Part shown: piece by piece, positions 1,712 to 4,275 of the stretch | How the letters are laid out: every line of letters begins with the position of its first letter | How positions within the stretch are numbered: the first letter of the stretch is position 1 | IMG/VR virus record: IMGVR_UViG_2734482780_000006 | From: a virus | Lineage: Duplodnaviria; Heunggongvirae; Uroviricota; Caudoviricetes | Length of the DNA: 5,868 nucleotides | Reading direction: 5' to 3' (one strand) | The notes under the pieces: model-generated | What the model was told of the DNA's origin: nothing | The model's input: the letters and a program-made list of their open reading frames with translations, nothing else | Database searches by the model: none | Made by a program: the position numbers and the translations under genes

Positions 1712-3709
1712 ATGTCAGAAACGAATGCGGCAGCGTCACAACAATCAGCCGCCACTTCTGCATCCACCGCGACCACGAAAGCGTCAGAAGCTGCCACCTC
1801 AGCCAGGGATGCGTCGGCTTCAAAAGAGGCGGCAAAATCATCAGAAACGAACGCCGCCTTGAGCGCCAGTGGTGCAGCGTCCTCGGCAACGGCGGCAGGC
1901 AATTCCGCGAAGGCGGCAAAAACGTCCGAGACGAACGCAAGGTCTTCTGAAACGGCAGCGGCACAGAGCGCTTCTGCAGCGGAAGGCTCAGAAACTGCCG
2001 CTGCATCATCGTCCCGTGAGGCGTCAGTTAAAGCGGAGGAGGCCTCAGCCAGTGCCACCGCCGCCGGAAAATCGGCAGAAAGCGCTGCATCGTCCGCTTC
2101 AGCAGCCACAACGAAGGCTGGTGAAGCCGCTGAACAGGCCAGTGCAGCAGAGAGATCTGCTTCCGCAGCGAAGACATCAGAGACGAACGCGAAAGCGTCG
2201 GAAGCCAGCGCAGAATCCTCAAAAACGGCAGCCGTATCGTCCGCCAGTTCGGCGGCGTCATCAGCATCATCGGCGTCAGCTTCAAAAGATGAGGCGGCAA
2301 GGCTGGCGTCAGAGGCGCAGGGCAGTGCCACGACGGCATCCGCGAAGGCGACAGAGGCAGCTGGCAGTGCGACAGCGGCAGTGCAGAGCAAAAGTTCTGC
2401 TGAGTCTGCAGCAACACGCGCAGAAAATGCGGCAAAACGGGCAGAGGAGATTGCATCTGCTGTGGGCCTGGAAGATGCCAGTACGACCACAAAGGGAGTT
2501 GTCAAGCTCAGTAACCGTACTGACAGCACTTCGCAGACAGAGGCCGCCACATCCCTTGCAGTCAGTAACGTCATGAATGAGGTGAAGACAAAAGCGTCAC
2601 TGGATAGTCCGGTCTTCACCGGTACCCCTATGACACCGACACCACCGGACGATGCTTCAGGTCTGGAAACAGTGAATGCGGCGTTTGTCCGCAAATTGCT
2701 TGCTGCTCTTGTGGGTTCATCTCCTGAAACCCTGGACACGCTGAACGAACTGGCGGAGGCGCTGGGTAATGACCCGGCGTTTTCCGTAACGATAATGAAG
2801 ATGCTGGCCGGAAAACAGCCTTTAAATCCCGTTCTGACTGCGTTAGGCAGTCTTCCATCCGGTGAAGATGGGTTTCCCAGTTTTAGCGGTAACGGGCAGT
2901 GTTCTCTGGCTCCTGTTTCTGAAAAAGGGAAACAGCTGTTGTCACAATCCACAGCCGAAGAGATGTGTGACGTTCTGGGTATCAATGGAAATAGTGGAAA
3001 CTCAGCAGCAGGCGGAAATTATGGGCTTCAGTCAGGCATTTATGACAGAACGCAGGGGCGGGCCGCTGTTGCAGGAAGTCTGGGATTCGGGCATATCTTC
3101 ACAAAAGGTGACGTTCTCAGCTTTTCGTCGAAGGAAGTGCTTCTTGACTGGATCTCAAATGCCACACCGGGGCGGTATACGGTCAGCGCTGACTGCGAAA
3201 TTATACCGGAAGTACAGTTTACAGGTGTGATTGATTTATTTTTCGCTGATGAGATGCGGAATAACCTTACTGTCCCGCTGATGCTGAAGATGGCTGTTTT
3301 TTACGGGATGAACGGTGAACTGTATCGGGCAACATACGATGCCATACATGGCCCTTCACTGAGTGAATGGGTGAAAATAAATATTGACCTGTATGATATT
3401 GCCAAAATCCTGAGCATGACCACAAACGATAATTATGGTGATCCGTATGCTGGAAGCATAACACTGGCAGCCTTTAATAGCCGTGGCAGCACTAAAACAG
3501 CTAGCGTCGTACGAGGGCAATATTACCCGGGCTCCGTCCTTACTCCCGTGGTATTCAGTGTTCCGGAGGGGGCATTATCGTCGCCGAAGATTGGGCTTTC
3601 TGGTACAGAGAAGCACACATTGCCGGGTGTTTACCGTGCATTATCCGGAACCCCGGATTACACCGGAGAAGGTGAGTTTATTATTGCTGCTTTTATAAGG
3701 ACGATGTGA
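1712..3709 (+). CDS. stf: Side tail fiber protein (lambda Stf-like), 5'-truncated, with a lambda-like Ala/Ser-rich shaft and a divergent distal domain; expression uncertain
   Basis: The 665-codon ORF runs from ATG 1712 to TGA 3707-3709. The stretch from ~1526 to ~2500 closely matches the central part of lambda Stf as I recall it (DSARAASTSAGQAA...AAKxSETNAAASQQSAATSAS...SETNARSSETAA...). The conserved DTLNELAEALGNDP...LAGKQP...LTAL motif lies at ~2735-2850. The last ~280 codons do not resemble the lambda Gly/His-rich C-terminus. Confidence 0.8.
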   Translation: MSETNAAASQQSAATSASTATTKASEAATSARDASASKEAAKSSETNAALSASGAASSATAAGNSAKAAKTSETNARSSETAAAQSASAAEGSETAAASSSREASVKAEEASASATAAGKSAESAASSASAATTKAGEAAEQASAAERSASAAKTSETNAKASEASAESSKTAAVSSASSAASSASSASASKDEAARLASEAQGSATTASAKATEAAGSATAAVQSKSSAESAATRAENAAKRAEEIASAVGLEDASTTTKGVVKLSNRTDSTSQTEAATSLAVSNVMNEVKTKASLDSPVFTGTPMTPTPPDDASGLETVNAAFVRKLLAALVGSSPETLDTLNELAEALGNDPAFSVTIMKMLAGKQPLNPVLTALGSLPSGEDGFPSFSGNGQCSLAPVSEKGKQLLSQSTAEEMCDVLGINGNSGNSAAGGNYGLQSGIYDRTQGRAAVAGSLGFGHIFTKGDVLSFSSKEVLLDWISNATPGRYTVSADCEIIPEVQFTGVIDLFFADEMRNNLTVPLMLKMAVFYGMNGELYRATYDAIHGPSLSEWVKINIDLYDIAKILSMTTNDNYGDPYAGSITLAAFNSRGSTKTASVVRGQYYPGSVLTPVVFSVPEGALSSPKIGLSGTEKHTLPGVYRALSGTPDYTGEGEFIIAAFIRTM

Positions 3710-4275
3710 TGAAAATAAAAAAAATCAGCGAACAAAGGTATCTTGAAACCGGAGATGTTGACTGCATGGTCGAGTTTTCAGGTATGGAAATGCCACTTCC
3801 ATACACAGCTTCGGCAAATGATACAGCAGAAACTGGCCGGCAAATCTGGCAGGAACTGCAGAGTGGCAGATGGGGTGAAATCGCCCCGTTCACAGTCACG
3901 CCTGAAGTTATTGCCGCAGCCAGAGATGCCAAAAAGTGGGAAATCGAAGCCTGGCGCACAGAACAGGAAGCGCAGCCGTTCACATTCGAATGGAACGGAC
4001 ACACCTGGAATGGCGGCCCCGACTCGCTGGCCCGCCTTTACCCGGTGGTAATGGCTGCAGGGGCTGACTCAGGGCAGTGGGACGTTATGACATGGAGTGA
4101 TGCTGATAATCAGCAGGTGAAACTGTCGATGACGGAACTGGAGGAGCTGGCTGCAGCTATGGCGCAGGCGCAGGTTGATCGCAATAATGAGATTTATCGT
4201 CATCAGCGTGAAATGAAAGAGGAACTGAGCAATCTCCTGGATTTGAAGCAGGTTAGGGAGTTCAGTCCAGAATAA
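3709..4275 (+). CDS. Putative tail fiber assembly/chaperone protein, family not recognised from sequence; hypothetical protein
   Basis: The 188-codon ORF starts at ATG 3709 (GTG 3706 is an alternative) and ends at TAA 4273-4275. Its start overlaps the stf stop (ATGTGATGA), implying translational coupling. Its position directly 3' of a tail fiber gene is the usual location of tfa-type chaperones. It lacks the lambda/P2 Tfa C-terminal motif (…LLEAWKKYRVLLNRVD…) as far as I can tell. Confidence 0.55.
   Translation: MKIKKISEQRYLETGDVDCMVEFSGMEMPLPYTASANDTAETGRQIWQELQSGRWGEIAPFTVTPEVIAAARDAKKWEIEAWRTEQEAQPFTFEWNGHTWNGGPDSLARLYPVVMAAGADSGQWDVMTWSDADNQQVKLSMTELEELAAAMAQAQVDRNNEIYRHQREMKEELSNLLDLKQVREFSPE

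Follow-up and report, generated by a model that had tools for sequence, protein, structure and literature searches.

In Alteromonas phage V22, the tail fibre protein gp26 binds its host only if it is co-expressed with gp27; size-exclusion chromatography parts the two proteins completely, and the fibre remains active without gp27 (PMC7289586). The H-fibre of the Campylobacter CJIE1 prophage, placed on a pyocin scaffold, was functional only with its downstream DUF4376 gene (PMC7882524). In phage A5, gp9 co-purifies with its fibre, and trimer models of both A5 gp9 and V22 gp27 place a helical core and beta-hairpins beneath the fibre head, whose sheet is extended by three chaperone strands; the authors of this follow-up study on phage A5 also proposed an additional role as a transient cap (PMC10579305). 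TfaMu and Pam3 gp25 bind the fibre through a variable beta domain at the N-terminus and trimerise through a conserved helical domain at the C-terminus (PMC9608196). Here, we analysed a stretch of 5,868 nucleotides (nt) from IMG/VR record IMGVR_UViG_2734482780_000006, hereafter the window, which is a segment of an Escherichia coli lambdoid prophage; an identical stretch adjoins uspF/ompN in two complete genomes. An original prediction, made from the letters of the window alone, had proposed that a protein of 188 amino acids (aa) encoded directly behind the side tail fibre gene stf is a fibre chaperone, though not one of the lambda Tfa type. We found that this protein is an E. coli lambdoid member of the known DUF4376 tail-fibre chaperones and that it raises no new biological question.

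The gene, its junction with stf, its two domains and the presumed client domain are located as follows.

3709-4275 (stop codon included), plus strand: chaperone-candidate gene for the 188-aa DUF4376 protein, defined by its open reading frame (ORF) and translation.
3697-3711, plus strand: coupling junction, with AAGGA at 3697-3701, the stf stop TGA at 3707-3709 and the chaperone start ATG at 3709-3711.
3709-3894, plus strand: N-terminal domain, aa 1-62, with strands E3-11, E17-23 and E30-34 and helix H41-52 (AlphaFold2; predicted local distance difference test score, pLDDT, about 97).
3919-4233, plus strand: DUF4376 domain, aa 71-175 (Pfam envelope), consisting of helix, beta-hairpin, helix, beta-hairpin and long helix.
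3029-3706, plus strand: distal (tip) domain of Stf, aa 440-665, the presumed chaperone client, ending in the conserved motif LF[VI]R (here AAFIRTM).

The protein is 100% identical to RefSeq WP_040079877.1, a "DUF4376 domain-containing protein". A Pfam search, as the original prediction had suggested, returned DUF4376 (PF14301) as the sole match (62.0 bits against a cut-off of 25, E = 8.3e-17, aa 71-175), and this family contains validated fibre chaperones. PHROGs returned phrog_1141, "tail fiber protein" (E = 4e-79), and searches of NCBIfam and PADLOC with the 188-aa protein gave no matches. Homology to a toxin, immunity, defence or regulator family, looked for as evidence against a role in the fibre, was found in none of Pfam, NCBIfam and PADLOC. 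The Pfam model of lambda Tfa (Caudo_TAP, PF02413) did not match at E values up to 0.1, in agreement with the earlier remark that the lambda-type signature is lacking, and the Pfam prefoldin models did not match the protein. Pfam likewise gave no match to Peptidase_S74 (PF13884), and the chaperone has an ORF, a start codon and a ribosome-binding site apart from those of the fibre. When PDB was searched by sequence, the single query produced one meaningless match (E = 2.7) and a profile of 75 family sequences produced none; by sequence, then, no solved structure can be detected for any family member.

The link to a characterised chaperone was provided by V22 gp27 (sequence from MN877442), which matches Pfam DUF4376 (E = 3e-21) and phrog_1141 (E = 1.4e-10). 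The 75-sequence family alignment matched gp27 with an hhalign probability of 96.8% (E = 2.5e-10, 114 columns, DUF4376 region only), whereas the same profile reached 0.4% against phiP27 L55, used as a Caudo_TAP control (Pfam 6.5e-22). The presence of the first match and the absence of the second place the 188-aa protein in the DUF4376 chaperone family and not in the Tfa family, thereby adding homology to the positional argument from which a chaperone distinct from lambda Tfa had been proposed. DUF4376 has also been equated with the conserved C-terminus of Mu TfaMu (PMC7882524). We did not adopt this equation; the Caudo_TAP protein that showed no profile similarity here was phiP27 L55, not Mu U.

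The protein had been described as unfamiliar, which does not hold. A word-indexed search returned 1791 homologues, the best 120 of which are all E. coli-type DUF4376 proteins, and an exhaustive search of representatives at 50% identity yielded 277 homologue clusters. About 1185 of 5426 complete E. coli genomes contained DNA relatives, in every case annotated as DUF4376 domain-containing protein. Phage homologues include phiP27 L57, the proteins of Rac-SA53, SerU-LTIIb, and Av-05 with related Vequintavirinae, and ORF-191 of the P-Eib prophages, which is listed beside eib genes in GenBank. The DUF4376 gene is common, already catalogued and named only by its DUF number. The 1791 homologues, together with a mean pLDDT of 97 in the AlphaFold2 model, show that the gene is real and not a chance ORF. 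The representative search also contained P0135 (315 aa), which joins immunoglobulin-like domains of gpJ to the C-terminal ~75 residues of a DUF4376 protein and most probably arose as a further deletion chimera in a decaying prophage.

The original prediction of a stop/start coupling was borne out by the junction itself. The 3′ end of stf reads AGG ACG ATG TGA, its stop has one base in common with the downstream start codon, and the resulting TGATG can be read directly at 3707-3711. AAGGA, 7 nt upstream of the ATG, is a plausible Shine-Dalgarno sequence. The start of 3704 given earlier takes in the last Stf codon, and the gene begins at 3709; an alternative GTG at 3706 would add one residue, and both RefSeq and the homologue alignment favour the ATG. 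The product translates exactly as had been quoted and has an isoelectric point of 4.55. Its last 60 residues, predicted to be helical, contain 13 aspartate and glutamate versus 7 lysine and arginine residues, as expected from the acidic, helical C-terminal region described for it. No signal peptide or transmembrane segment was apparent in the sequence or in the AlphaFold2 model. The guanine-cytosine (GC) content is 0.51 in the chaperone gene and 0.49 in the fibre tip, and it ranges from 0.30 (spacer) to 0.40 (gene) in the eib cassette farther downstream.

Gene order was surveyed in IMG/VR loci, annotated phages and six individually inspected distant homologues. The main set comprised 84 loci, namely 79 of 80 IMG/VR prophage contigs (L079, with no start codon in range, was left out) and five annotated phage or genome loci. 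The question whether homologues always follow fibre genes was answered positively in this set, with a gap of -4 to +14 nt in 83 of the 84 loci. The distance to the preceding same-strand ORF was -1 nt in 22 loci, which repeat the 1-nt overlap seen in the window, and +6 to +14 nt in 60; the outlying values were -4 nt (L048, at a contig end) and +83 nt (L040). In nearly all loci the C-terminus of the preceding ORF was homologous to Stf 440-665, with 26-48% identity, or 81-100% in the closest, and the terminal motif LF[VI]R was conserved in the upstream fibre ORFs. A homologue of the Stf tip was lacking upstream in L040, in L048 at its contig end and in a few frameshifted pieces of very short length. 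Where frameshifts split the upstream fibre ORF, as in some loci, its last piece retains the tip. The tip variant encoded in the window is a rarer one; a word-indexed single-sequence search matched it to only four protein clusters. In L022, L029, L031, L034, L041, L051, L066, L076 and L081, fibre ORFs of ~1050 aa repeat the first tip half (Stf aa 440-560) internally, ahead of the terminal tip; this extra copy recalls the A5-like knob duplication (PMC10579305).

The same pairing of fibre and DUF4376 genes was found in phiP27 (L56/L57), Av-05 (gp76/gp77) and P-EibA (orf-401/orf-191A). phiP27 contains two pairs of fibre and chaperone genes, with fibre L54 followed by a Caudo_TAP protein and fibre L56, which has a lambda-Stf-type N-terminus, followed by the DUF4376 protein. 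Among the distant homologues (28-42% identity), those in L088 and L091 occupy the gpG slot behind P2-type fibres, that in L089 lies behind a lambdoid Stf after gpJ, and that in L094 lies behind a glycine-rich fibre protein after a gpJ-like gene; in L093 the contig ends just upstream, and L087 is the exception discussed below. Virulent phages (Av-05 and its Avunavirus relatives, V22) also carry homologues, within their structural modules. A Tfa-like sequence was detected within 1.5 kb downstream in 5 of 66 loci, indicating that the DUF4376 protein is usually the sole candidate fibre chaperone.

AlphaFold2, run with the 75-sequence alignment, produced a two-domain model with a predicted template modelling score of 0.82. 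In this model, the DUF4376 unit consists of a helix (65-88), a hairpin (91-102), a helix (104-119), a second hairpin (126-140) and a long helix (141-174). In size (188 aa; family ~190-250 aa) and in layout the protein is typical of its family, in which the N-terminal part is variable and the helical DUF4376 body at the C-terminus bears beta-hairpins. The model has the bipartite plan known from TfaMu and Pam3 gp25 (PMC9608196). We propose that the N-terminal domain is the fibre-tip-binding or specificity domain and that the DUF4376 domain is the oligomerisation and assembly core, the latter by reference to the published trimer models (PMC10579305). The three N-terminal strands correspond to the three chaperone strands placed against the fibre head in the A5 and V22 models. 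One distant relative, P0156 (254 aa, L091/L092:4001-4765), is encoded behind a P2-type fibre and has a DUF4376 domain 39% identical to that of the window protein. Its N-terminal domain is different, being Caudo_TAP_N (PF28596) according to the precomputed Pfam record, which suggests domain shuffling between the two chaperone classes. Among 57 distinct pairs, tip identity correlated with N-domain identity at a Spearman coefficient of 0.44 and with C-domain identity at 0.14, kinship among the pairs being ignored. The difference between these two coefficients and the exchanged N-terminal domain of P0156 fit a division of labour in which the N-domain serves the fibre and the C-domain forms the core.

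We consider it likely that the gene specifies a DUF4376-class chaperone that acts intermolecularly in tail-fibre assembly; coupled to its fibre, it would bind the tip, trimerise and leave. The mechanism outlined here is modelled by analogy on V22 gp27, A5 gp9, TfaMu and Pam3 gp25. Through the overlapping stop and start codons, the chaperone would be translated directly after the fibre, and hence where and when fibre chains appear. Its small N-terminal beta domain would dock on the Stf distal domain, and the C-terminal helical domain would self-associate, bringing three fibre C-termini into register so that trimerisation could begin at the tip. The chaperone would then depart, or might linger loosely as a cap.

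The remaining features of the window bear on how the gene arrived and on the state of the prophage that carries it.

34-1536: lambda gpA-type terminase ORF, ending at codon 500 (Pfam GpA_ATPase and GpA_nuclease).
1518-3709 (listed ORF 1712-3709), plus strand: side tail fibre gene stf, 5′-truncated, its frame open from at least 1496, without the phage_tail_N anchoring domain.
4291-4457, plus strand: decayed lambda-type tfa, of which Tfa residues about 45-105 are left, interrupted by in-frame stops and a frameshift.
4461-5071: AT-rich spacer, 30% GC.
5072-5868, plus strand: 5′ part of a YadA/Eib-like trimeric autotransporter gene (RefSeq "YadA-like family protein"), which leaves the window end.

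A lambda-type tfa remnant had been reported immediately after the chaperone gene, and it was recovered by tblastn with a lambda Tfa query sequence; independently, RefSeq marks a tail-fibre-assembly pseudogene at the equivalent of 4348-4457 (L001/L002). In a second prophage contig (L006:4247-4700; IMGVR_UViG_2778261280_000006), an identical DUF4376 gene is followed by a 5′-truncated tfa that spans residues 50-191 at 82% identity, and we read it as a less decayed stage of the replacement scar in the window. On the simplest reading, a cassette of tip and DUF4376 gene would have replaced the 3′ end of a lambda-type stf together with the first ~45 tfa codons, and later, in the lineage of the window, an AT-rich eib-like cassette would have removed the rest of tfa. 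The joint travel of tip domain and DUF4376 gene and the longer tfa of L006 support the earlier suggestion that the gene came with the new fibre tip.

The prophage around the gene is incomplete. The window stf had no Pfam match to phage_tail_N and aligns with intact Stf ORFs (870-900 aa) only from their residue about 216-236 onward. The homology breakpoint, at 1517/1518, falls in the fibre shaft, where stf meets the truncated terminase gene in a different frame. From the cut terminase and the onset of stf homology at 1518, it follows that all head and tail genes between terL and mid-stf are missing and that the prophage is deletion-scarred. Strain ZYB62 matches window positions 1-1213 and 1518-5868, with ~1.9 kb of unlike sequence between them. 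Since stf has lost its 5′ anchor part and the head and tail genes are gone, the intact chaperone gene is probably idle here, or provides other lambdoid phages with material for recombination. A 463-aa antisense ORF (1594-2985, minus strand) and several others lie across the stretch of stf that encodes Ala/Ser/Thr-rich repeats (aa 1-290); these look like by-products of biased, repetitive composition and not like genes. The product of the YadA-like gene begins with a signal peptide (MKKLFVASVIFTVSANSYA), followed by Ala/Ser/Gly/Asn-rich repeats, and its gene holds the slot that eibA occupies behind ORF-191A in prophage P-EibA.

Several observations weigh against a chaperone role for the protein. 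A5 gp9 is dispensable for a functional fibre, so that not every family member is an essential chaperone (PMC10579305). The DUF4376 gene at L087:2628-3239 (P0146), on a podovirus-like contig, is the sole examined one that does not lie behind a fibre; its two neighbours are an adaptor gene of SU10 type and a gene for an "internal virion protein" (phrog_511). In the literature, we found no E. coli-specific work on the DUF4376 protein. Among 57 distinct pairs, tip identity correlated with N-domain identity at a Spearman coefficient of 0.44 and with C-domain identity at 0.14, kinship among the pairs being ignored. The difference between these two coefficients and the exchanged N-terminal domain of P0156 fit a division of labour in which the N-domain serves the fibre and the C-domain forms the core.

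That the protein is instead a structural part of the virion, namely a tip-bound cap or adhesin comparable to T2/S16 gp38 or TfaMu that masks or aids receptor binding, appears unlikely to us. Such a role would account for the label "tail fiber protein" in PHROGs and in several GenBank records, but these names appear to be positional annotations given without experiment. TfaMu remains bound to its fibre, and A5 gp9, and residually V22 gp27, co-elute with theirs, in line with the proposed transient cap (PMC10579305); on the other hand, gp27 comes off gp26 completely and the fibre stays active (PMC7289586). The protein is also far less variable than the tip, with a mean pairwise identity of 71-76% versus 40%, which argues against a host-range adhesin, since an adhesin would be expected to vary more. 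It is similarly doubtful that DUF4376 acts as a prefoldin-like holdase, in which the hairpins would oligomerise, the long helices would hold unfolded fibre C-termini, and a removable virion cap might mask the receptor-binding site. Long helical hairpins match many unrelated proteins, designed ones included, at similar Z, and the resemblance to prefoldin is most likely one of analogy. If the holdase model were true, one conserved E. coli chaperone would serve many divergent tips (40%) of a single tip family and could be a portable helper for engineered lambda Stf chimeras.

The gene is located where a lambdoid prophage is rich in cargo, at its right end, beside the YadA/Eib-like gene, and its Pfam domain is still one of "unknown function", as might be expected if it were non-structural cargo (immunity, exclusion, toxin/antitoxin or regulator) that merely sits behind the fibre, like lom, bor or the eib-like gene. 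This is very improbable given that no defence, toxin or regulator family was matched, that translational coupling to the fibre gene is conserved and that homologues belong to structural modules of virulent phages; its GC content, moreover, matches the tip and not the AT-rich eib cassette, and neither a signal peptide nor a transmembrane segment was apparent. There is an equally slim chance that the local ORF is a dead relic, intact by chance in a decaying prophage and functionless anywhere. The terminase cut at codon 500, the missing 5′ end of stf and the tfa remnant speak for decay, whereas an identical protein occurs in several genomes and prophage contigs, and the family, with 1791 homologues detected, has been kept full-length (68-100% identity) in prophage contigs with long fibre ORFs. 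Decay would in any case touch the local copy and not the gene family, for which a fibre-coupled assembly chaperone remains our preferred interpretation.

The value of this assignment is mostly practical, consisting of better annotation and of a rule for moving this tip family together with its DUF4376 gene. RefSeq currently offers only the label "DUF4376 domain-containing protein", and phage records mislabel the gene as "tail fiber protein". On the evidence given here, its annotation can be changed to a tail-fibre assembly chaperone that is paired with a single family of tip domains (Stf aa 440-665). When such tips are grafted on lambda, P2 or tailocin scaffolds, we propose that the downstream DUF4376 gene should go along, because the Campylobacter and Alteromonas work showed that need in their systems.

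Compared with known systems, the Caudo_TAP proteins (PF02413) lambda Tfa, P2 gpG and Mu U resemble the window protein in that a small gene directly behind the fibre gene encodes them and in that, like DUF4376, they combine a variable N-domain for the fibre with a conserved C-domain. They have no sequence relationship to it, as seen from the missing Pfam match and the hhalign value of 0.4% against phiP27 L55, and in the window the lambda-type tfa has been displaced, surviving only as a remnant. A helical trimerisation core with fibre-embracing beta elements, from which folding begins at the C-terminus, is known from Pam3 gp25, K1F endosialidase (3GW6) and T5 pb1 (4UW8) (PMC9608196, PMC10579305). 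Unlike the intramolecular chaperone domains of K1F and T5, the window protein is a separate polypeptide without autoproteolysis, and it matches no PDB sequence even by family profile. The prefoldin alpha and beta subunits are more distant, with 6-14% sequence identity and no Pfam prefoldin match.

Within E. coli, ORF-191 of the P-Eib prophages (strain ECOR-9) is a direct homologue at 36-40% identity, and the proteins of phiP27, Rac-SA53 and SerU-LTIIb reach 70-76%. The gene order of prophage P-EibA agrees with that of the window (J, lom, stf-like ORF, ORF-191A, eibA), and phiP27 L57 overlaps the 3′ end of its fibre gene L56. All of these proteins were deposited as hypothetical or "tail fiber", without a functional test. 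V22 gp27 and A5 gp9 come from marine myo- and podoviruses, whereas the window belongs to an E. coli lambdoid prophage and its protein is known here from sequence and model. The N-terminal domains of V22 gp27 and the window protein do not align, and their client tips are unrelated. gp27 and gp9 share with the window protein the Pfam domain and an architecture of N-terminal beta-strands followed by a C-terminal helical body, and V22 gp27 shares its PHROG and has the profile match of 96.8%. V22 gp27 and the window protein are close in length (195 versus 188 aa), both are encoded directly behind a fibre gene on the same strand, and the beta-hairpins of the window protein are short, as in V22, without the long "tentacle" of A5.

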